64,000 bases of DNA from Escherichia coli O127:H6 str. E2348/69 (GTDB lineage Bacteria; Pseudomonadota; Gammaproteobacteria; Enterobacterales; Enterobacteriaceae), in assembly GCF_000026545.1 (NCBI RefSeq), contig NC_011601.1. One strand, 5' to 3'. The notes under the pieces were generated by a model, which was given only the letters and a program-made list of their open reading frames with translations, made no database searches and had not been told where the DNA came from. This document shows, one piece after another, positions 7,545-64,000 of this stretch. The position numbers and the translations under genes were made by a program. How positions within the stretch are numbered: the first letter of the stretch is position 1; each line of letters begins with the position of its first letter.

Positions 7545-8498
7545 ATGCGTTTCAGTACCCAGATGATGTACCAGCAAAACATGCGTGGCATCACCAATTC
7601 TCAGGCAGAATGGATGAAGTACGGCGAACAGATGTCGACGGGTAAGCGAGTCGTTAACCCTTCAGATGATCCCATTGCTGCATCACAAGCTGTTGTTCTC
7701 TCCCAGGCACAGGCACAAAACAGCCAGTACACGCTGGCGCGTACTTTCGCCACTCAAAAAGTGTCACTGGAAGAGAGTGTGCTTAGCCAGGTCACCACTG
7801 CTATCCAGAATGCTCAGGAAAAAATTGTCTACGCCAGCAATGGCACCTTGAGTGACGATGACCGGGCCTCACTGGCTACGGATATTCAGGGGCTTCGTGA
7901 TCAGTTACTGAATCTGGCGAACACCACTGACGGTAACGGGCGCTACATTTTTGCCGGTTATAAAACAGAGACTGCGCCGTTTAGTGAGGCTGACGGTGAT
8001 TATGTCGGCGGAACAGAAAGTATTAAACAACAGGTCGATGCTTCGCGTTCGATGGTGATAGGACATACGGGCGACAAAATTTTCGACAGTATTACCAGCA
8101 ACGCGGTAGCGGAACCAGACGGTAGCGCTTCTGAAACCAATCTTTTTGCCATGCTGGATAGCGCCATCGCAGCCCTGAAAACGCCGGTCGCGGATAGCGA
8201 AGCGGATAAAGAAACCGCCGCTGCGGCACTGGATAAAACCAACCGCGGACTGAAAAACTCGCTGAACAATGTGCTGACTGTTCGCGCGGAATTAGGCACG
8301 CAGCTGAACGAACTGGAGTCGCTTGATTCATTAGGTAGCGATCGCGCTTTAGGGCAAACGCAGCAGATGAGCGATCTGGTTGATGTGGACTGGAATGCAA
8401 CTATTTCATCTTACATCATGCAGCAAACGGCATTGCAGGCATCGTATAAAGCATTTACCGATATGCAGGGATTGTCGCTCTTCCAGCTCAACAAATAA
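7545..8498 (+). CDS. flgL: flagellar hook-associated protein 3 FlgL
   Basis: 317-aa ORF, flagellin-like N- and C-termini; last gene of the flgB-L cluster. Confidence 0.95.
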   Translation: MRFSTQMMYQQNMRGITNSQAEWMKYGEQMSTGKRVVNPSDDPIAASQAVVLSQAQAQNSQYTLARTFATQKVSLEESVLSQVTTAIQNAQEKIVYASNGTLSDDDRASLATDIQGLRDQLLNLANTTDGNGRYIFAGYKTETAPFSEADGDYVGGTESIKQQVDASRSMVIGHTGDKIFDSITSNAVAEPDGSASETNLFAMLDSAIAALKTPVADSEADKETAAAALDKTNRGLKNSLNNVLTVRAELGTQLNELESLDSLGSDRALGQTQQMSDLVDVDWNATISSYIMQQTALQASYKAFTDMQGLSLFQLNK

Positions 8499-8540
8499 GC
8501 TCGCTTTAAAACATATCATGAAACTGGGTATGTTTTGTCT

Positions 8541-8575
8541 GCCCGCTCTGGGATCGCCGGGGCGGGCATTTTTTT
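8541..8575 (+). terminator. rho-independent terminator downstream of flgL
   Basis: Stem gcccgc(8541-8546)/gcgggc(8562-8567) followed by a T7 run. Confidence 0.7.
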
Positions 8576-8592
8576 GCATGAGACATAACGAA

Positions 8593-9377
<785 letters not shown>

Positions 9378-9408
9378 AAATATATCCTTCGGCTTTGCGT
9401 GGATGATA

Positions 9409-9438
9409 ATTATACAGCACATGTAACGCTAATGTCAT
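9409..9438 (-). promoter_or_regulatory. candidate sigma70 promoter of the toxin-antitoxin operon
   Basis: On the minus strand: -35 ATGACA (9433-9438), 18-nt spacer, -10 TATAAT (9409-9414); overlapping inverted repeats (tgtaa...ttaca) could be an autoregulatory operator. Confidence 0.45.
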
Positions 9439-9463
9439 TACAGCAAAGATGCTACCCCTGAAA

Positions 9464-9490
9464 TAAAAAAGCCCTGGCAGTTACCAGGGC
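9464..9490 (-). terminator. rho-independent terminator of rne
   Basis: Hairpin gccctgg-cagtta-ccagggc (9471-9490) followed on the minus strand by a T-run (plus-strand aaaaaa 9465-9470). Confidence 0.65.
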
Positions 9491-9510
9491 TTGATTACTT
9501 GAGCTAATTA

Positions 9511-12500
9511 TTACTCAACAGGTTGCGGACGCGCAGGAGCGGCAGAGGCATGATGCGTTGCCGTATGACCACCTGCGGCACCTTTGCCTTCGAAGGCAAA
9601 AGTAGGGCGCTGCCAGTCACTGTGACGCGGTGCCTCCGGAACATATTCCGGTGCCGGAGCGCGCGTCATTGGCGCGGTAGCGTGGTTATGCTCAACGGTG
9701 ATCTCTGGTTCAACCGCGGCTACCGTTTCAACTTCTGCTGCGACTTCAGCGACGACTGGCGCGGCAGGTTGAGCAACAACTTCAGGTTCAGCAACCACAA
9801 CCTCAGCAGTTTCGGCAACTTCTTCAATATCTGCCGTCTCTTCCTGCGGTTCAACTACCGGTTCTGCGTGTTCTGCAACTTCCTGGGCTACGGCAACATC
9901 AGACTCGGTAATCACCTGCGGCTGTTCAGTTACCGCGGCGGCAATTACTACAGGATGCGTCGTTTCAACCACTTCCGGTTGCGGTTCGGCAATCTGAACG
10001 GGGGCTTCTACGACTTCAGCCACTTCTTCAACAACTGGCGCGCTAACAACCGGTTCGACAGCGGCGGCGACAGGGACCTCAGTCACCATCGGCTGCACTT
10101 GTACTTCTTCCTGTTCGCGCTGCTCTTCGACCTGTACATCTTGCGGACGTACAATTGGATAGCGGATCCAGACTTTGCCAGAGGCCAGTTCCGGAGATGC
10201 GCAAGCTACGGTCAACGGCATTGGCGATTGGGTTGGATAACGCTCGTCACGATAGCGACGACGACGCTGACCACTCACGCGCAGGTGACGAGGCGAGCGG
10301 CGAGAACGACGCGGCATGCCACCGTTGTCACGGTTATCGGCATTGTTCTCTTCTTGCTGTTCTGGTGCAGCTTGCGCTACGACTGGCAGCGGGACTTTCA
10401 CCAGTTCTGTGCGTGGAGCTGGCGCTTCCTGAACAATTGGTTCGGCAGCGACAGTTTCTTCAACCACCGGTGCGACTACCGCTTCTTCGGCTACGCTTTG
10501 CTCGTAACGCACTTTCTGATTGAGCTGACGCTGTTTACGACGCGGCTGAACCGGACGTACACGTTCTTCCTGTTCGGTTTCCTGAACAGATTGCTCTTCA
10601 ACATTCAGCGCCTTCGCTTCTTGTTGCGCCTGACGTTTATCATCGTTACGGCGGCGGCTACGTTCACGACGCGGCGCTTGCTGCTCGTCGGTGGTACGCG
10701 CTTTTTCCGTTACCTCAGCCTGCTGACGGCTCTCACGCGTCTCGACAGTCTGCTGCTGTGCCTGGCGACGATTACGACGGTTTTCTTCGCGATTATCGCT
10801 GCCTTCTGTACGTTCACTACGGGAGTCGCGGCGCTCATTACGGTCACGGCGGTTGTTCTGACGAGGCTTGCGACGATCCTGTTGACGTTCCGGTTTCGCT
10901 TCTGCTTTCGGTGCTGGTTGCTCGGCCGGTTTGGTTTCTTCACCACCGCTGAACAGCGCTTTCAGTGCGCCGAAGAAGCGGCTCAACAACCCTGGTTGTG
11001 CAGGAGATGCTGGTGTTGCCGTTGCAGCTTTAGGTGCTGGGGCTACAACAGGCGCGGCAGGTTCAGCTGGGGTTGGAGCTGGCGGCACATCCGGCATGGC
11101 AAAGGTTGCCAGCGCAGGTTGTTCCGGACGCTTACGTTCAGCGAACTCTTCTTCAGACGGCAGCGCCATCGCTTCTTCATGCAGCTTCGGCAGCATGTAG
11201 CTTAAGGTTGGAGTTTCTTCCCCTTTACGCACGCGCAGCACATGGTAGTGCGGGGTTTCCATCTGATCGTTTGGCACAATCACACAGCGCACGCCGTCCT
11301 GACGAGTTTCAATCGCATTCACTGCAGAACGTTTTTCATTCAGCAGGTAAGACGCGATTGGCACAGGAACAATGGCGTGAACTTCCTGAGTGTTCTCTTT
11401 CAGCGCTTCTTCTTCGATCAGACGCAGAATAGAGAGCGACAACGATTCGTTGTCACGCACGGTACCGGTACCGGAGCAGCGCGGGCAGACGTGATGGCTG
11501 GATTCACCCAGTGATGGGCTCAGACGCTGACGGGACATTTCCAGCAGGCCAAAGCGAGAAATATGGCTGATTTGAATACGCGCACGGTCCTGACGCACCG
11601 CTTCACGCAGACGATTTTCTACCGCACGCTGGTGGCGTACTGGCGTCATGTCGATGAAGTCGATAACAATCAGGCCGCCGAGGTCACGCAGGCGCAGCTG
11701 ACGAGCAATCTCATCGGCAGCTTCGAGGTTGGTGTTAAACGCGGTTTCTTCGATATCGCCGCCGCGGGTCGCGCGTGCGGAGTTGATGTCGATGGCGGTT
11801 AACGCTTCGGTGCTGTCGATAACAATGGAACCACCAGATGGCAGACGAACTTCACGCTGGAAGGCGGACTCAATCTGTGACTCAATCTGGTAGTGGCTGA
11901 ACAGCGGGATCTCGCCGGTGTACAGTTTGATTTTGCTGCTGAAATCCGGGCGACCTAATGCAGCGATATGCTGGCGTGCCAGTTCGAGCACTTTCGGGTT
12001 ATCGATAAGGATTTCGCCGATATCCTGACGTAAGTAATCGCGGAATGCGCGAACGATGACGTTGCTCTCCTGATGAATCAGGAACGGAGCTGGGCGGCTT
12101 TCAGCGGCTTTTTTGATGGCTTCCCAGTGTTTCAGACGGAAGCTTAAATCCCATTGCAGCGCCTCAGCAGATTTGCCGACGCCAGCGGTGCGCACGATAA
12201 GCCCCATGCCTTCCGGCAGTTCAAGGCTTGCCAGTGCTTCTTTTAATTCGGTACGGTCGTCGCCTTCGATACGACGAGAAATGCCACCCGCGCGCGGGTT
12301 GTTCGGCATCAGAACCAGATAGCTACCCGCCAGACTGATAAAGGTGGTTAATGCCGCGCCTTTGTTGCCGCGCTCTTCTTTATCGATCTGAACAATGACT
12401 TCCTGACCTTCACGCAACACATCTTTAATGTTGGGACGACCATGAGCACTGTAGTTAGCAGGGAAATATTCGCGGGCAATTTCTTTTAGTGGGAGGAAAC

Positions 12501-12696
12501 CGTGACGTTCAGCGCCGTAATCAACAAAAGCAGCTTCCAGACTCGGTTCAATGCGGGTGATTTTACCTTTGTAGATGTTTGCCTTTTTCTGCTCGTGCCC
12601 TGGACTTTCGATATCCAGGTCATACAGACGCTGCCCATCTACAAGGGCAACGCGCAACTCTTCCTGCTGAGTTGCGTTGATTAACATTCTTTTCAT
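9511..12696 (-). CDS. rne: ribonuclease E
   Basis: 1061-aa ORF; N-terminal S1/catalytic region ([30 protein letters not shown]...) and Arg/Pro/Glu-rich low-complexity C-terminal scaffold. Confidence 0.95.
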
Positions 12697-13057
12697 CGTA
12701 ACTTACTCATTATTCTTACATTGACGACTAAGCTGCGGGCAAAGTAACGCCTTTCCGGGTGTGAACCGATGGCCTCGTGTCTAGTCGCGTCGCCAACCTC
12801 ACGGTTATCGTCAGCTCAAAGAGGCGCAGAGTGTCGGTTGCCCGTTTTTCATGCGGAAAAACAGCGCAATTATCAAAGAAACAGACTGGGTATTACTCTC
12901 CAGAAATATTTCCATCTACCGGTAAGGACTGCAACCCGCAGCCCGCTAACTGCCTGAAAGATCAATACGTCTTACACCATTGCTGCGTGGATGATCGGTC
13001 GGGCAAAATGGGTTATTCCGTAAAATTTCTTGTTTTAACAAGGATGGACACGGAAAC
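12697..13057 (-). promoter_or_regulatory. rne 5' untranslated leader (autoregulatory)
   Basis: Long non-coding stretch upstream of the rne start; a leader of about 360 nt is known for rne; exact 5' end not determinable from sequence. Confidence 0.45.
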
Positions 13058-13151
13058 GGCCTCATTATTCCACTGCAAGCCTTGTTATAGCAAGATGACT
13101 TTTACCATTTATCACCCGCTTACTCACAGTTTTTTCACTTCTTGCTGGTGA
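12831..13151 (+). CDS. yceQ: small ORF overlapping the rne leader (YceQ-like; doubtful gene)
   Basis: ORF 12777-13151; 106-aa version from GTG at 12831; no convincing RBS or domain. Confidence 0.25.
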
Positions 13152-13268
13152 TTGGTTTAATAACCATCAATAAAGTGATCACGTAGTGAAGTAATAAGGT
13201 GCAAAACTAAATATAAGCATAGAAAAATGAGTGGCGCGAATCCTGTTGGCTAATTAGAATCGCCCACC

Positions 13269-53546: not shown

Positions 53547-56018
53547 TTAAAAATCAGCCTGATTCGGGATCAGTTTTTGCCAGATAGCTGAAACGTATTT
53601 TGCCTGGTGACGAGCGTCATCAAGTGCATTATGGCGCTCACCTTCGAATGGAATAGCCGTTCTGGCATCGAAGTCTATGGCTTTCCCCAGCTCAACGATT
53701 GTGCGTACATCGCGATCGTTGTAGTAACGCCACGGGCAGGGGATCCCCTGCCGTTCGTATGAACGGCGCAAAATCGTGTTGTCGAAGTTGGCTCCATTTC
53801 CCCAAACCTGAACAAAAAATTCACCGGAGTTTTCGTCGATAAATTCCCGCAATTGTAACAGTGCATCATCTAACGGGATTTCATCGGTCATAATGGCAGA
53901 TTGCGCTTCGCGTGATTGCTTAAGCCACCATTTAATGGTGTCCCGATCAATGACTCCGCCAGCAGTTTCCAGATCGATAGTCTTACTAAATTCCGGTCCC
54001 ATATCTCCGGTTTGCGGATCGAAAAATATTGCACCTATTGAGATGATCGGGGCATCAGGATTTTTTCCCATGGTTTCAAGGTCGATCATTAGATGGTCAC
54101 ACGTCCTGCTGGTGGATGTGATTTCGTGATGACCGTTCACCTTAATTGAGTGATCTGCCGTCTCGCCAGTCTCATTATCGCTATTGTGATGCTGATTGCC
54201 GCCAGTGTTCTCCTTGTGTGGATGCTCAGCGCCTTCCATTTCCTCCGGATCATCTTCCTGAACTTCAACCTGATACTCTTCATCGAATGTTTCCTGGTAT
54301 GTTGCGTCGCCCATCACCGCACCACAATCAGGGCAGTTGCCGCCGCCGGTCTGACCGCAGGCGGTGCAGACTTTTTCCACTTCCTGTTGCACTACTGGTT
54401 CAGGTAGTTTCGTTTCTGGCTCGTTTTGTTGCGTATTTGGGCTGTTTTGTTCCGCTTTCTGGTCGTTCTGTTCCGTTTCTTGCTGGTTCTGGTTCACAGA
54501 ATCGCGGGTTTCAATCCCCTTCACCCATTTCGGATCATTCGGATCGCTAATCCCTGCAACAAATTCACCACGTGATACTGCAAGCAGTTCATCGGCGTCA
54601 GGCTGGCTGATATTGGCTGCCTGCATAATTTTGTTTACTTCGTCAGCGGTAACTTTTACCGGCCCTGGTTGTGCGGTCGTGTCAGATGCACCAGTATTTT
54701 GTTGTGAACCTGAGTATGTACCGTTTTTGCGGGCGAAATATTCTTCTTTCGTGATTTCAGTAGCCCCTGCAGCCAGTGCCTTATCCAGACCAGAAAGTTT
54801 GTTTGCGCGACCGTATTTTTCGCTATCCTTGTCGGTGAAGAGGAAGTAGAACGGCCCTTCACGCTCTACAGATGGTTCGACTTCCACTTTGCATTCGGTT
54901 TTTTCGTTGTCCGGAATTGCCGTTTCCACTGCATCAGTTTCTGGTACTGGCGACGAGAGAGTATCAGTTGCGCTCTGATTTGTTCCTTCATCTTCAAACA
55001 CGCCCTTTGTAGTCAGGTATTCAGTAATGTATTTGTTCAGTGCCACAGGGTCTTTGTGAATGTCGATCGGACGTTCACGGACAAGGCCAAAAATAGTCTG
55101 GCGGTCGTAGCGAAGGGCATCAGGCTGTTTGCGCATTGATGCCGAGATACGCTTCCAGTCTTCGCGGTAGTTGTCGATAACTTCATTTTTTGCCCAGCGA
55201 TGGATGCTGCCGTCAATGTTTCCGGCATCCACATCACCAGGCCAGAGAGCGTAGGCCAGTTCGTCATCCAGTGTTTTCCATGTCTGCTTGTATTCGCGAT
55301 GAGTGGCAGCAATGACCGGGCTGATTTTTCCTGTTGAATTTTCAGTGTTCTGTTGATTGGCTCTGGCGCGGGCGAGATCAACAACAGACGTGTATTTTCC
55401 GGTTTCCTTGCGTTCACCTTCGCGACGTTTTTTCCAGATGCGCATCTCTGCCTGAATTTCGGGCCATTTGGCACCAGGCTTACATTTATGCTTAACCCAC
55501 CCGATGGCATGCAGCTTAAGCTCCGGATACATGGCGTTAACTTCTGGCATTTTCATCAACGCTTCAACGATATGTCCGTCGAATGTTGCCATGTCTTCCT
55601 GCAACAATTCCTGTGCGCTAATCACCATATCAACGGTGATGTTTTCACATGTGTCGAACTTAACCATGACAGCGTTCTGTACTTCAGGGGCCAGCTTGTC
55701 AAAAGTGACGTTCATCGGATCGGATTCAGTCTCAACCGGGACAAAAGAAGCAGAATCCTCATCCCAGCGGTTTTCCTGCATATATTCAGCATCCCATGAA
55801 TCGAGGGCAGGGCGGGGTATGCCAGGTTTATCCTCGCAGACAATAAATTTATAAGCGCAGTCCTGAGCAGCCGGATAATGTTCCAGGAATTGCCAGTGAA
55901 ATTTTGCTCGAGCACGGCGTTCGTCGCCAGCTTCAATGGCTGTGGCTACAGCCACAGCGCCTTCTTCCCTTGTTGCCAGTTCGTCAGGAATAGCGGCGCA
56001 AATAAAGACTTTACTCAT
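53547..56018 (-). CDS. prophage exonuclease with C-terminal DnaQ-like (DEDDh) 3'-5' exonuclease domain
   Basis: ORF 53547-56054 (alternative start MSKVF at 56018); C-terminus has DLETMG and HNALDDA motifs; central Gln/Asn/Glu-rich linker and a Cys4 cluster CTACGQTGGGNCPDCG. Confidence 0.7.
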   Translation of the reverse strand: MSKVFICAAIPDELATREEGAVAVATAIEAGDERRARAKFHWQFLEHYPAAQDCAYKFIVCEDKPGIPRPALDSWDAEYMQENRWDEDSASFVPVETESDPMNVTFDKLAPEVQNAVMVKFDTCENITVDMVISAQELLQEDMATFDGHIVEALMKMPEVNAMYPELKLHAIGWVKHKCKPGAKWPEIQAEMRIWKKRREGERKETGKYTSVVDLARARANQQNTENSTGKISPVIAATHREYKQTWKTLDDELAYALWPGDVDAGNIDGSIHRWAKNEVIDNYREDWKRISASMRKQPDALRYDRQTIFGLVRERPIDIHKDPVALNKYITEYLTTKGVFEDEGTNQSATDTLSSPVPETDAVETAIPDNEKTECKVEVEPSVEREGPFYFLFTDKDSEKYGRANKLSGLDKALAAGATEITKEEYFARKNGTYSGSQQNTGASDTTAQPGPVKVTADEVNKIMQAANISQPDADELLAVSRGEFVAGISDPNDPKWVKGIETRDSVNQNQQETEQNDQKAEQNSPNTQQNEPETKLPEPVVQQEVEKVCTACGQTGGGNCPDCGAVMGDATYQETFDEEYQVEVQEDDPEEMEGAEHPHKENTGGNQHHNSDNETGETADHSIKVNGHHEITSTSRTCDHLMIDLETMGKNPDAPIISIGAIFFDPQTGDMGPEFSKTIDLETAGGVIDRDTIKWWLKQSREAQSAIMTDEIPLDDALLQLREFIDENSGEFFVQVWGNGANFDNTILRRSYERQGIPCPWRYYNDRDVRTIVELGKAIDFDARTAIPFEGERHNALDDARHQAKYVSAIWQKLIPNQADF

Positions 56019-56110
56019 TTGTTTTAACCTCATGACAGATTTAAGGATGAACAAATCCCTGCCATTGCTGGCATATAAGAATGAAACCGGATATTTATTA
56101 CGGAACTGTT

Positions 56111-56656: not shown

Positions 56657-56714
56657 AAAAAGGGCGGCAGAGCAGTCACGGAGTAAAACTGATACCGCCA
56701 AACGTCACCAGAAA
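56657..56714 (-). ncRNA. dicF: DicF small RNA
   Basis: Minus-strand sequence TTTCTGGTGACGTTTGGCGGTATCAGTTTTACTCCGTGACTGCTCTGCCGCCCTTTTT matches the recalled DicF sequence including its terminator hairpin and U-tail. Confidence 0.75.
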
Positions 56715-60801: not shown

Positions 60802-61240
60802 ATTAAAGAGCATTAGTTCAGATGTGAATTGACATTGTGTGGCACAGGGTTGGGCTAGCGTGGGGGTTTGCTTTGTGTAAGAAACGGATGCTCTGCAAAT
60901 TACTACTAATGCTTAATGTTAGTCTGATCTGCTCCCCGATGATTAATACACCGCTATGTTAGTAATGTCTGTAGATCGCTGTGTGTTGCATCCATCGGTT
61001 GACCCCACAGTCCAAACCAGACTGTCAGCTTTGATTCGATTCTATCTACTCAACCTGTCAGGTAATGTCTGAGCTAATACACAGAGTACGGCTATCGCGA
61101 ACTTTAAGCTAGGTATCTGATACGCACCGTTCACTTGGTCGTACTTCTTGCACTGACTAGCTATCGTGCGCAGTTATTTATAGGTAATCTCCAGTGTATA
61201 ATTTTCCAACTTATGGGAGATTGTAAAACAGGAGGAATAT

Positions 61241-62083
61241 ATGAGGAAAAAATCGTTTGGACGTTGCCCGTTTGATTTCGACGAAGATGTAAAAAAAATA
61301 GCCGCGATAAATAAATATATCCATGCGAAATTTGAGAGGCATAAAAATAAAATAGATAACCTAAAGGGGGTGGAACAAAAATTGATGGTTTTACATTACT
61401 TTAATGTACTGAATGAACTTAGTAATCAGGCTATATTTTCTTTGAGTACCGGAGCCTTTTCAGCATCGGAAGTATTAACTAGAGTTATAATGGAACAGGC
61501 TGCCAATCAATTTTATATAGCAATTGATGATGGAAAAAATGCACAAGCATTACTCAAGGGTAGTAAGAAATTAGTTCATAGTAATGGGAAACGGTGGCTG
61601 GAGTGTTTAAAATCCAAAGAAATGACTAATCCAGCAGCAGATGAAAGGATTCGTATCGGAAAAGAGCTAACTGATATGTTTAATAGATTGTGGCCAAATA
61701 CACCTGAATATCCTGGAACCAAAAAGCTTTTCGAAGTAATTGGCTGGGAAACACACTATCATGCCTATTACGTCCCTCTTTGTGATTCAATACATACATT
61801 CTCTGATGATATGGCAAATATAGTATCTCTATATAATGCAATCCAAAGCGATAAAACTACTGCTATCGAACTCACTCTTGCAGTTAAACAAGAAAATAAA
61901 CGGCTGGCAATTTATAATGTCGTAATTGCTATTGGCCTGCGGTGTGAGGCCTTAGTAAATGTATTTAACTCTTTAGGTTATCGAGATATTATAACTGAAA
62001 TGGCGCCAACAATAGATGCAGTCAACCAGATTATAATTCGATATGATGATTTCGAACATTCCAGAATTTTTTATTGTCAATAA
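61241..62083 (+). CDS. hypothetical protein, AT-rich cargo gene (predicted mostly alpha-helical; function unknown)
   Basis: 280-aa ORF with AGGAGG SD 7 nt upstream and TATAAT -10 at about 61196; Lys/Ile/Asn-rich codon usage unlike the flanking prophage backbone. Confidence 0.7.
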   Translation: MRKKSFGRCPFDFDEDVKKIAAINKYIHAKFERHKNKIDNLKGVEQKLMVLHYFNVLNELSNQAIFSLSTGAFSASEVLTRVIMEQAANQFYIAIDDGKNAQALLKGSKKLVHSNGKRWLECLKSKEMTNPAADERIRIGKELTDMFNRLWPNTPEYPGTKKLFEVIGWETHYHAYYVPLCDSIHTFSDDMANIVSLYNAIQSDKTTAIELTLAVKQENKRLAIYNVVIAIGLRCEALVNVFNSLGYRDIITEMAPTIDAVNQIIIRYDDFEHSRIFYCQ

Positions 62084-62140
62084 TTAATTGGCAGAATTCG
62101 TACATGCACAACAACTAGTTATAGTTGACCTATTTCGCTC

Positions 62141-62709
62141 TTGAGAGACAACCATACTCAAATCTTCCACATTGCAGGAGATTTGAGTATGAATACGTCA
62201 CCGAGGAACAAAGACAGTATCATAGGCCCAAAAAGACCACTTCAGATATCTCATATCTGGGGGCTCCAAATCCGGCTTGAACTGGAAGGTAAAACGCGTG
62301 ATTTAGCTCGGTTTCAAGCAGAGCTACGGTGCTGCAACTGAAAAACTGGCAGTCCTATCCAATTTGAGATAACCAAAGGGACAAGAGAAGCTGTTTCTGC
62401 ATTGATAAAGCTTGGCAATTTACGCAGTAAAGACTACTTGTTCCGATCTCGGGTCGGTACTAACCAACACATATCAATCCTGCAATATAACCGAATCTTT
62501 CATAGGAGGGAGAAAAGCTTGGTCTCGAAGATTCGCTTTACAGCACACATTCCATGAGAAGAACAAAACCTTGCCTTGTCTGCAAGAAAACTAAGAATCT
62601 CCGGGTGATCCAACTTCCGTTGGGCCATAAGAAAACGGAAAGCACAGTTCGTTATCTGGGTATAGAAGTTGATGATGCATTAGAGATCTCTGAATCGATC
62701 GAAGTCTAA
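62141..62709 (+). pseudogene. decayed tyrosine recombinase (integrase-family) gene
   Basis: Recombinase segments spread over three frames: ...KRPLQISHIWGLQIRLELEGKTRDLARFQAELRCC / FEITKGTREAVSALIKLGNLRSKDYLF / SMRRTKPCLVCKKTKNLRVIQLPLGHKKTESTVRYLGIEVDDALEISESIEV (HxxR...Y catalytic tail). Confidence 0.6.
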
Positions 62710-62715
62710 AGCTGT

Positions 62716-62737
62716 CAGGGCTGCAGCAGCAGCCCTG
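62716..62737. repeat. perfect hairpin (9-bp stem, 4-nt loop) immediately after the recombinase relic
   Basis: cagggctgc-agca-gcagccctg; no U-tract follows, so not a canonical terminator. Confidence 0.5.
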
Positions 62738-63121
62738 TGCCAAGAGCGTACCAATATATGTCTCAAAAAATTGGGCACAGGTCAATATCAATACCAACAA
62801 CTCTGATTGTGCTCATGTGATTTACTCCTGTAGAAAACGCAGACAGTAAAAATATTTCACTGGCTGCTTCAGACAGGGCGTCCATCATATCATTACATAA
62901 CAATAGCGGGGCACGATATCTAGACATGCAGCAACGATGGACATAGAATGAGTACAATCAAAAGCATGTTTAACTACTTTAATTTAAAAATCTTAGAATC
63001 TTAGGTGTAGAGTTCAATACTTAGTTACATACCCTTTTGAAAGCATCACAAATCATAACTATGAGCCTGTTAAAGGCATAGGTATTCTTAATTAAGAGCA
63101 TTTTAATGAGAGAAAAATAAA

Positions 63122-64000
63122 ATGAAAAGACTATATTATACCCATCATGATAGTCGAACCTTAAAACTTGCTATAGAAGGTGATGTTTCTGATAATGCGA
63201 ATATTTTTACAGTAATTGTAGGTAAAAATGGCGTTGGAAAAAGCAGATTGTTATCTCAGATTGCTAAAGACTGTATTCAAGATATTCATTTCTTGAAAAC
63301 TTTTAATCCATTATTTGACAGAGAAATAACACCAAAGTTAATTGCCGTATCTACCAGCCCATTCGATAAATTCCCTCCAGGGCGTAGGTCATTAAATCAC
63401 CAAAGGAAAGAAAATAATTATCGCTATGTGGGTATGCGTGGAGAAGGCCCCTTCGGCGTATCAAATGCCGTATCCCTTTTATCTTCAGCAGCGAGAGGTT
63501 GGCTAGAGAAACTTGCTTATTCAGAAAATCCTGCAAATTTACTCGATGTTTTTCATTCTATTGATTTTGAGCCCCATATAGAGTTTGTATTTAAACCAAC
63601 TTACAACGGACCGGACACTCCTGACTATAACTTCATTGGTGTATATTCAGATGAGATATTAACGGAAGTTAAGGAGTTATATTTAAAATACAATATAAAA
63701 ATTGACAGGAAGAATATTGAGAGTCTCTTAAAGTTAAACTCCGAATCACGTCATGATATTTACGAAGCACTGGTTGAAATTAATCGATTTGAACCTGAAC
63801 GTAGGGCTGTAACCTTGTCAGTCGATTTTACCAATGGTGAAACATTGGTTGGCTCGACTTATGCGAATAATTATTTTTCTAGATCAATTCTTAAACTTAT
63901 GAACGCTGGCTTCATGAGATTGATGGATATGCGACTCATAAAAAAAAGCTATGGTCCCATGTCACTTAAACGTGCGAGCTCGGGAGAACAATGTTTATTA
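63122..64000 (+). CDS. ABC-type (AAA_15/AAA_21/OLD-like) ATPase, N-terminal 293 codons; runs off the window end
   Basis: Open frame from the ATG at 63122 with no stop to 64000 (absent from the ORF track for that reason); Walker A VIVGKNGVGKSRLL near residue 33; ABC-signature-like SSGEQ at the last codons; AT-rich. Confidence 0.7.
   Translation, partial: MKRLYYTHHDSRTLKLAIEGDVSDNANIFTVIVGKNGVGKSRLLSQIAKDCIQDIHFLKTFNPLFDREITPKLIAVSTSPFDKFPPGRRSLNHQRKENNYRYVGMRGEGPFGVSNAVSLLSSAARGWLEKLAYSENPANLLDVFHSIDFEPHIEFVFKPTYNGPDTPDYNFIGVYSDEILTEVKELYLKYNIKIDRKNIESLLKLNSESRHDIYEALVEINRFEPERRAVTLSVDFTNGETLVGSTYANNYFSRSILKLMNAGFMRLMDMRLIKKSYGPMSLKRASSGEQCLL

Follow-up and report, generated by a model that had tools for sequence, protein, structure and literature searches.

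The final 879 nt of a 64,000-nt stretch of the Escherichia coli O127:H6 strain E2348/69 chromosome (contig NC_011601.1; the whole stretch is referred to here as the window) contain the 5' part of ptuA, the leading gene of the two-gene operon ptuA-ptuB, which very probably constitutes a standalone (type I) Septu system carried as cargo of a Qin/DicB-type lambdoid prophage. This kind of system is already known and is recognized by public defence hidden Markov models (HMMs). An initial annotation, made from the window sequence without database searches, had read the fragment as an ABC/OLD-like ATPase forming the core of an anti-phage system, with Septu among the candidates that it listed. That reading is supported and has been narrowed from five candidate families to one, Septu: PADLOC identifies the full-length ATPase and the product of an overlapping HNH gene as PtuA and PtuB.

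The fragment lies at positions 63122–64000 on the plus strand (codons 1–293 of 457), and the gene ends at window-equivalent position 64495. Sequence past position 64000 was taken from the E2348/69 chromosome (locus L002, in which a position equals the window position minus 53,899). L002 is a legitimate continuation of the window, because the final 10,101 nt of the window align to it with zero mismatches, compared with 55 for FORC 064. The complete ptuA product (L002 9223–10593) is a protein of 457 amino acids (aa), WP_000827088.1, identical in E2348/69 and named "AAA family ATPase" in RefSeq. The adjoining ptuB (window-equivalent 64482–65117; L002 10583–11215) encodes a 211-aa protein, WP_001124204.1, named "HNH endonuclease". 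The two genes are co-oriented, with a 14-nt overlap at the 3' end of ptuA. Direct translation reproduced the uninterrupted 293-codon frame described earlier for 63122–64000 (+); the remaining five frames of the same 879 nt contain 17–32 stops each, and 293 open codons would arise by chance with a probability of 2.4e-10 at the local base composition. The Walker B motif, the D-loop and a partner gene, anticipated to be a nuclease, had been predicted to lie beyond position 64000, and Walker B, D-loop and H-loop motifs and the overlapping HNH endonuclease gene are indeed found just past the edge.

Profile searches assign both proteins to the family. Full-length PtuA matches the PADLOC model PDLC00283 at 1.9e-165 from aa 2 to 455 of 457 (profile positions 3–447 of 448), and PtuB matches PDLC00325 at 1.1e-83 over aa 4–209 of 211. 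The initial annotation had considered the family unassignable from the fragment, which holds for Pfam, where the 293 residues gave nothing below an E-value of 1e-3, but not for PADLOC, where they already reach the PtuA model PDLC00283 at 6.6e-76. Extension of the locus and renewed Pfam and PADLOC searches, as had been suggested, returned AAA_21 (1.7e-14) and AAA_15 (4.7e-12) in full-length PtuA, HNH (1.1e-4) in PtuB and Septu models for both genes, while Pfam found no TOPRIM, DUF4435 or helicase domain in either full-length protein. No NCBIfam model reaches its cutoff with the fragment or the full proteins, which accounts for the generic RefSeq product names. The predicted folds have solved PtuA and PtuB as their best structural matches.

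The lack of a TOPRIM or DUF4435 domain and of a helicase favours Septu over Gabija, PARIS, Lamassu and OLD. It is highly improbable that the protein is instead the ATPase of another ABC-ATPase defence family, such as PARIS, Gabija (GajA/GajB), OLD, Lamassu or AbiL/AbiEii, and this alternative is effectively refuted. Its appeal stems from the C-terminal ATPase lobe, which resembles the PARIS ATPase AriA, the best PDB match by phmmer and by profile, as well as from partial PADLOC matches of PtuA to AriA, ATPase-Toprim_I-B and AbiLi and from the Pfam description of AAA_21 as "putative AbiEii toxin". However, the non-Septu PADLOC models (AriA, PDC-M01A, AbiLi, ATPase-Toprim) cover only 75–130 residues near the signature and Walker B motifs, and in E-value they trail the PtuA models, which match end to end, by more than 130 orders of magnitude. 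PtuA chains also rank ahead of AriA by fold, and in place of AriB, GajB or LmuA the conserved partner is an HNH nuclease. Regarding PARIS, the AriA models span only aa 270–353 or 225–352; AriA belongs to the same class of ABC ATPase sensors and gives the strongest PDB match to the signature-to-H-loop segment of PtuA (~75 residues), whereas AriB, the effector of PARIS, is of the DUF4435/TOPRIM kind. Gabija and OLD were rejected in view of the missing TOPRIM domain on the full-length protein and the missing adjacent helicase, and the clade profile meets OLD structures only around Walker B (~4e-6). For Lamassu, no Lmu model occurs among the best 25 PADLOC matches, the insertion in the PtuA model is compact α/β without a long coiled coil, and the partner is again HNH.

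The sequence motifs of PtuA are those of an ABC-type ATPase. The Walker A motif or P-loop, GKNGVGKS, is located at 63221–63244 (+; aa 34–41, with the catalytic Lys40) within VIVGKNGVGKSRLL at aa 31–44. Residues G34, N36, G37, G39, K40 and S41 are invariant among 41 clade members of 42–90% identity (alignment A1). The ABC signature SSGEQ lies at 63977–63991 (+; aa 286–290), and S286, S287, G288, E289 and Q290 are all clade-invariant. Both motifs and their spacing of 245–250 residues agree with the earlier description; the ~245-residue insertion that separates them adopts a compact α/β fold in the predicted model. Past the window edge lie Walker B (IILIDEPE, aa 308–315), the D-loop (SLH, aa 317–319) and the H-loop (ATHSP, aa 345–349), and these three motifs, like Walker A and the signature, are present and clade-invariant. 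Since the canonical signature glutamine, Gln290, is kept, ATP hydrolysis by PtuA is plausible. The STSPFDKF motif at 63350–63373 (+; aa 77–84), in which S77 through F84 are all invariant in alignment A1, occupies the position where a Q-loop-like element is expected and may function as one. The PtuA model also contains three C-terminal helices (aa 392–456). An A8 homopolymer at 63940–63947 (+) within ptuA is prone to slippage.

By sequence, PtuB is an HNH (ββα-metal) nuclease with two CxxC pairs, and its model shows a helical C-terminal domain (aa 155–203). Its motifs comprise CVYC (aa 56–59), E74-H75, N91, CVVC (aa 93–96) and C99-N100, and 44 homologues share residues C56/C59, E74-H75, N91, C93/C96 and C99-N100 without exception. 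A PHROG family of its own, phrog_36683, matches PtuB over its full length (2.5e-153) and is described as "unknown function"; PtuA yields only partial PHROG matches, none of them annotated. Phage-protein catalogues therefore contain this Septu nuclease without recognizing it as a defence protein.

The gene pair is conserved well beyond E. coli. Overlapping ptuA-ptuB pairs are found in Klebsiella and Pseudomonas at identities from 86% down to 43%, with overlaps of 14–17 nt in K. variicola, P. putida and P. aeruginosa and with unrelated flanks. The PDLC00283/00325 clade is widespread in Gammaproteobacteria, where it occurs in prophages, islands and plasmids. Among 50,697 phage records, tblastn found no full-length relative, the best match being a Vibrio phage with 39% identity over 44% of the query. 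Within E. coli, megablast detected positions 62900–64000 in 18 of 5,426 complete genomes, all with at least 99.8% identity. Four carrier loci were examined; PtuA is identical and intact in three and frameshifted in one, and PtuB is identical in all four. As a separate observation, the P. putida contig L005 carries at 8097–13297, beside its PtuAB homologue, an AAA_21/AAA_15 ATPase of 568 aa, a HATPase_c_3 protein of 573 aa and two unannotated open reading frames (ORFs), a neighbourhood that resembles a defence island in which another ATPase-based system is present.

A conventional ABC ATPase, either a transporter nucleotide-binding domain (NBD) or a housekeeping protein, could in principle stand by chance beside a selfish or homing HNH endonuclease, and the generic RefSeq names would accommodate such a pairing. 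The probability of this explanation is close to negligible. Transporter NBDs are ~200–250 aa in length, whereas PtuA is 457 aa with a 245-residue insertion; no permease genes are annotated near ptuAB, and NCBIfam transporter models score below 22 bits against cutoffs above 200. The initial annotation had named a transporter, a packaging ATPase or the lack of a partner as outcomes contrary to its proposal. The locus instead lacks permease or transporter context, its ATPase is not of the packaging type, and the partner gene encodes a nuclease of defence type.

The remaining question of family concerns the type of Septu. The missing reverse transcriptase (RT), TOPRIM domain and permease indicate a standalone type I system rather than a retron type. 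The possibility that ptuAB is the effector half of a retron-type system (type II Septu/retron I-A), whose RT and noncoding RNA (ncRNA) have been lost or reside elsewhere, is exceedingly slight. It is suggested by the best-ranking NCBIfam models, which are those of retron Ec78 PtuA and PtuB, and by the top fold matches of PtuA, which are retron-associated PtuA chains. Yet the scores fall far under the retron equivalog cutoffs (65.8 bits against 500 for NF041760, retron PtuA; 30.6 against 150 for NF041761, retron PtuB). The annotation shows no RT for 9 kb to either side of ptuAB, or within 6 kb in homologous loci of three other genera. The Rfam scan at E ≤ 0.1 returned no retron RNA, only sok and a sub-threshold isrK match 3' of hokD. 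The retron I-A/type II systems (Eco7/Ec78, Eco4/Ec83) depend on RT and multicopy single-stranded DNA (msDNA), which act as antitoxin and sensor. At ~550 aa, retron PtuA is longer than the 457-aa protein here and carries additional N-terminal sequence and a helical flap for binding msDNA.

As a standalone Septu, the locus can be compared with two studied E. coli systems. Their sequences are subject to caution: those of the Ec-B88 and ATCC 25922 PtuAB and the retron-Eco7 PtuB were taken by optical character recognition from a supplementary figure of PMC13096335 and contain errors, with the first block garbled, such that identities are approximate. In addition, findings on solved standalone Septu (Li et al., 2024, NSMB) are cited second-hand, through PMC12819146 and PMC12640716. 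Like the ATCC 25922 Septu (PDB 8EE4, 8EE7, 8EEA, 8SUX), the locus is a two-gene ptuA-ptuB operon that encodes an ABC-type ATPase and an HNH nuclease without RT, and the protein sizes are comparable (457 and 211 aa here; 465 and 243 aa in ATCC 25922). The best PDB match of the PtuB model is the ATCC 25922 PtuB, and the C-terminal helices of the PtuA and PtuB models are consistent with the helix bundle of E. coli Septu, reported to be formed by the PtuA C-terminal extension (CTE) and the PtuB C-terminal domain (CTD). Unlike this general architecture, the sequences have little in common: PtuA similarity is limited to ~55 residues around Walker B (3e-7), PtuB similarity is marginal, and the ATCC 25922 proteins fall in PADLOC clusters PDLC00310/00357 rather than PDLC00283/00325. 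The signature position also differs, with the invariant Gln290 of the present clade replaced by Leu in the solved E. coli PtuA, which is ATPase-inactive according to PMC12819146.

Septu Ec-B88 (E. coli JBBDAGI-19-0041; PMC13096335) is likewise standalone. H75 and N91 of its PtuB are numbered identically to those of PtuB here, and K43/D316 of its PtuA correspond to K40/D312. It nevertheless belongs to different PADLOC clusters (PDLC00271/00344), and its PtuB gives no significant BLASTP match. In Ec-B88 the ATPase and HNH motifs are essential for defence, which is lost when Walker A, Walker B or HNH is mutated; the system cleaves tRNA-Tyr in its variable loop and protects against Demerecviridae and T-even phages (PMC13096335).

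Searches of solved structures and studied proteins indicate a similar distance. A phmmer search of PtuA against the PDB matched the signature-to-H-loop segment only, with AriA at 1.5e-12 (aa 279–354), retron PtuA at ~1e-9 to 1e-10 and Septu 8EE4 at 3e-7, and the clade profile likewise found AriA as the best PDB match for PtuA (4.8e-17). No PDB sequence was matched by phmmer with PtuB, and solved PtuBs were reached only by the clade profile and by fold search. Against the approximate sequences, BLASTP related PtuA to Ec-B88 at 27% over 150 residues and to ATCC 25922 at 44% over 57 residues, and the best value for PtuB against the Ec-B88, ATCC 25922 and retron-Eco7 PtuBs was 7.8e-4. Judged by these comparisons, the distance from CHARACTERISED systems is that of a divergent clade, with ~27% identity over the C-terminal ATPase lobe to studied E. 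coli Septu and retron PtuAB. No experimentally tested system was found that belongs to the PDLC00283/00325 clade.

Several elements of a mechanism are shown for the locus itself: the two genes form an operon in which they overlap and are intact, the ATPase and HNH active sites are kept, both proteins belong to the family by HMM and fold, and the pair is retained across genera. Others come from studied relatives. According to PMC12819146, PtuA forms hexamers in E. coli Septu and tetramers in retron-displaced PtuAB, and the helical PtuB C-terminal domain is gripped by paired C-terminal extensions of PtuA, giving a nine-helix bundle. The nuclease of standalone Septu is reportedly inhibited by ATP binding (PMC12640716). 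PtuAB has been reported to cleave tRNA-Tyr at its variable loop in vivo and to nick supercoiled DNA in vitro, and Septu has been linked to the detection of phage tail fibres (Stokar-Avihail 2023, cited through a later paper). By analogy, PtuA would oligomerize and dock PtuB via the C-terminal helices of both proteins, keeping the nuclease silent before infection. Phage infection would then free or activate PtuB to cut nucleic acid, and the infected cell would be arrested, aborting phage replication. A 6:2 PtuA:PtuB complex with a nucleotide-regulated nuclease would be expected from the same analogy, and the C-terminal helices of both models are compatible with the reported bundle. An ATPase sensor/scaffold with an HNH effector and abortive-type protection is thus most likely for the locus if it behaves as its relatives do, and phage resistance dependent on the ATPase and HNH motifs is predicted from other Septu clades. 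It is conceivable, although rather unlikely, that the clade switches by ATP hydrolysis instead of occupancy and has a trigger or target other than tRNA-Tyr cleavage or DNA nicking, given its canonical, invariant ABC motif set, including the signature Gln, and its identity of at most 27% to studied PtuAB.

The prophage context places ptuAB in a site of variable gene content. As had been proposed for the fragment, the genes sit in a cargo region, between the prophage replication gene P and hokD/rem, in the slot that holds relBE in the Qin prophage of K-12. The early part of the prophage comprises genes for an exonuclease, ydfD, dicB, the DicF RNA, ydfC/B/A, a cI-like repressor, dicC/cro and ydaT. 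These are followed by an O-like gene, P, a DUF1627 remnant, the DUF5677 gene, a recombinase pseudogene, ptuAB, sok/hokD, rem, DUF968, rusA and Q. In K-12 Qin (L009 5120–5873), ydfV-flxA-relBE fill this slot, and the two prophages are homologous again from 16 bp upstream of hokD. Since the same backbone carries relBE in K-12 and ptuAB here, Qin-type prophages have, between their replication genes and hokD, a cargo site at which toxin and defence modules are exchangeable.

This location bears on a further explanation, in which the genes are true PtuAB by descent and serve mainly as a prophage addiction or toxin-antitoxin-like stabilizer, or are an inactive relic. The slot is the relBE toxin-antitoxin site of K-12 Qin and lies directly 5' of the hok/sok killer locus, and retron-Eco7 PtuAB is toxic when expressed free (PMC12640716). 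The surrounding prophage bears pseudogenes and insertion sequence (IS) elements, ptuA is frameshifted in one carrier strain, and the operon is rare, occurring in the 18 genomes mentioned above. On the other hand, both ORFs are intact and retain all clade-invariant catalytic residues, three of the four carrier loci share an identical intact PtuA and all four an identical PtuB, and every standalone Septu system tested so far protects against phage (PMC13096335). Defence and addiction roles can also coexist. An addiction module or relic is therefore improbable as the main explanation, and a standalone Septu defence operon is preferred.

The ptuAB genes form part of an AT-rich composite cargo island between prophage gene P and sok/hokD, which occupies 60900–64000 of the window with a GC content of 0.33–0.40 and runs ~1.3 kb past the edge, including ptuB. 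The foreign composition noted in the initial annotation is borne out by GC contents of 0.358 in the fragment and 0.378 in 60900–64000, compared with 0.511 in the rest of the window. Upstream of ptuA, an AT-rich region of 412 nt (62710–63121, +) presumably contains the promoter. Sigma-70-like matches occur at 62921–62949 (TAGACA-17-TAGAAT) and 62970–62999, and these are candidates only, because the 12 promoter-like sites found do not exceed the 12.5 expected in shuffled sequence. A terminator scan found none after ptuB, and terminator counts were no higher than shuffled expectation. A search for flanking direct or inverted repeats as marks of insertion found only short two-copy matches, consistent with chance.

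Two other genes share the island and provide context without being Septu components. The DUF5677 gene (61241–62083, +) encodes a 280-aa protein with no PADLOC or NCBIfam match and a full-length match only to phrog_4167 (function unknown). The decayed recombinase neighbour reported previously is a tyrosine-type recombinase/integrase pseudogene at 62189–62709 (+), flagged "frameshifted; internal stop" in RefSeq; its last ORF fragment keeps the C-terminal LGH...T..RY motif. An intact 194-aa homologue in E. coli S88 matches PHROG integrase families. DUF5677 was considered as a third Septu component and rejected, as it is absent beside PtuAB in other genera and occurs elsewhere without PtuAB. Together with the recombinase, at ~90% identity, it is found without PtuAB in 35 other E. 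coli genomes; the island is therefore composite, with DUF5677 a neighbour of ptuAB. In S88 (NC_011742.1, L012 6092–7625) and ~34 other genomes, DUF5677 and the intact recombinase are part of a P2-like prophage, where they are flanked by the genes for tail-fibre assembly and the tail sheath, a position that we take to be the P2 Z/fun accessory or defence hotspot. DUF5677 and the recombinase may be an uncharacterised phage-hotspot cargo pair. DUF5677 has been found enriched beside recombinases but not among protecting ORFs (preprint 10.1101/2025.10.07.681051).

On the other side of the operon, a full-length sok element (L002 11363–11529; Rfam, 112 bits) lies between ptuB and hokD. In E2348/69 an IS481-family element (L002 11524–12618) stands between sok and the hokD start codon and is absent from FORC 064 (region at window-equivalent ~65262–66532; L002 11363–12633). 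This insertion probably uncouples hokD from its leader. Elsewhere in the window, Rfam matches at gathering threshold comprise rne5, the 5' untranslated region element of RNase E (12721–13057, −), and the small RNAs SraB (14918–15086, +) and DicF (56662–56713, −), which identify the start of the window as core chromosome near rne and its end as a DicF/DicB-type prophage. Within this prophage, an 835-aa ORF at 53547–56054 (−), named "3'-5' exonuclease", has a long, acidic, Gln/Glu/Asn-rich low-complexity centre and, at its C terminus, an exonuclease-like domain, an unusual make-up for an early gene of a prophage.

Although the kind of system is not new, RefSeq labels its components here only as "AAA family ATPase" and "HNH endonuclease". 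The assignment adds an intact Septu locus to the inventory of the enteropathogenic E. coli prototype E2348/69 and of 17 other complete E. coli genomes. The prediction is that carriers may resist some therapeutic or laboratory phages, which in other Septu clades are Demerecviridae and T-even phages. The clade would also be useful as a comparator for Septu systems acting on tRNA versus DNA and for the role of ATP in their regulation.
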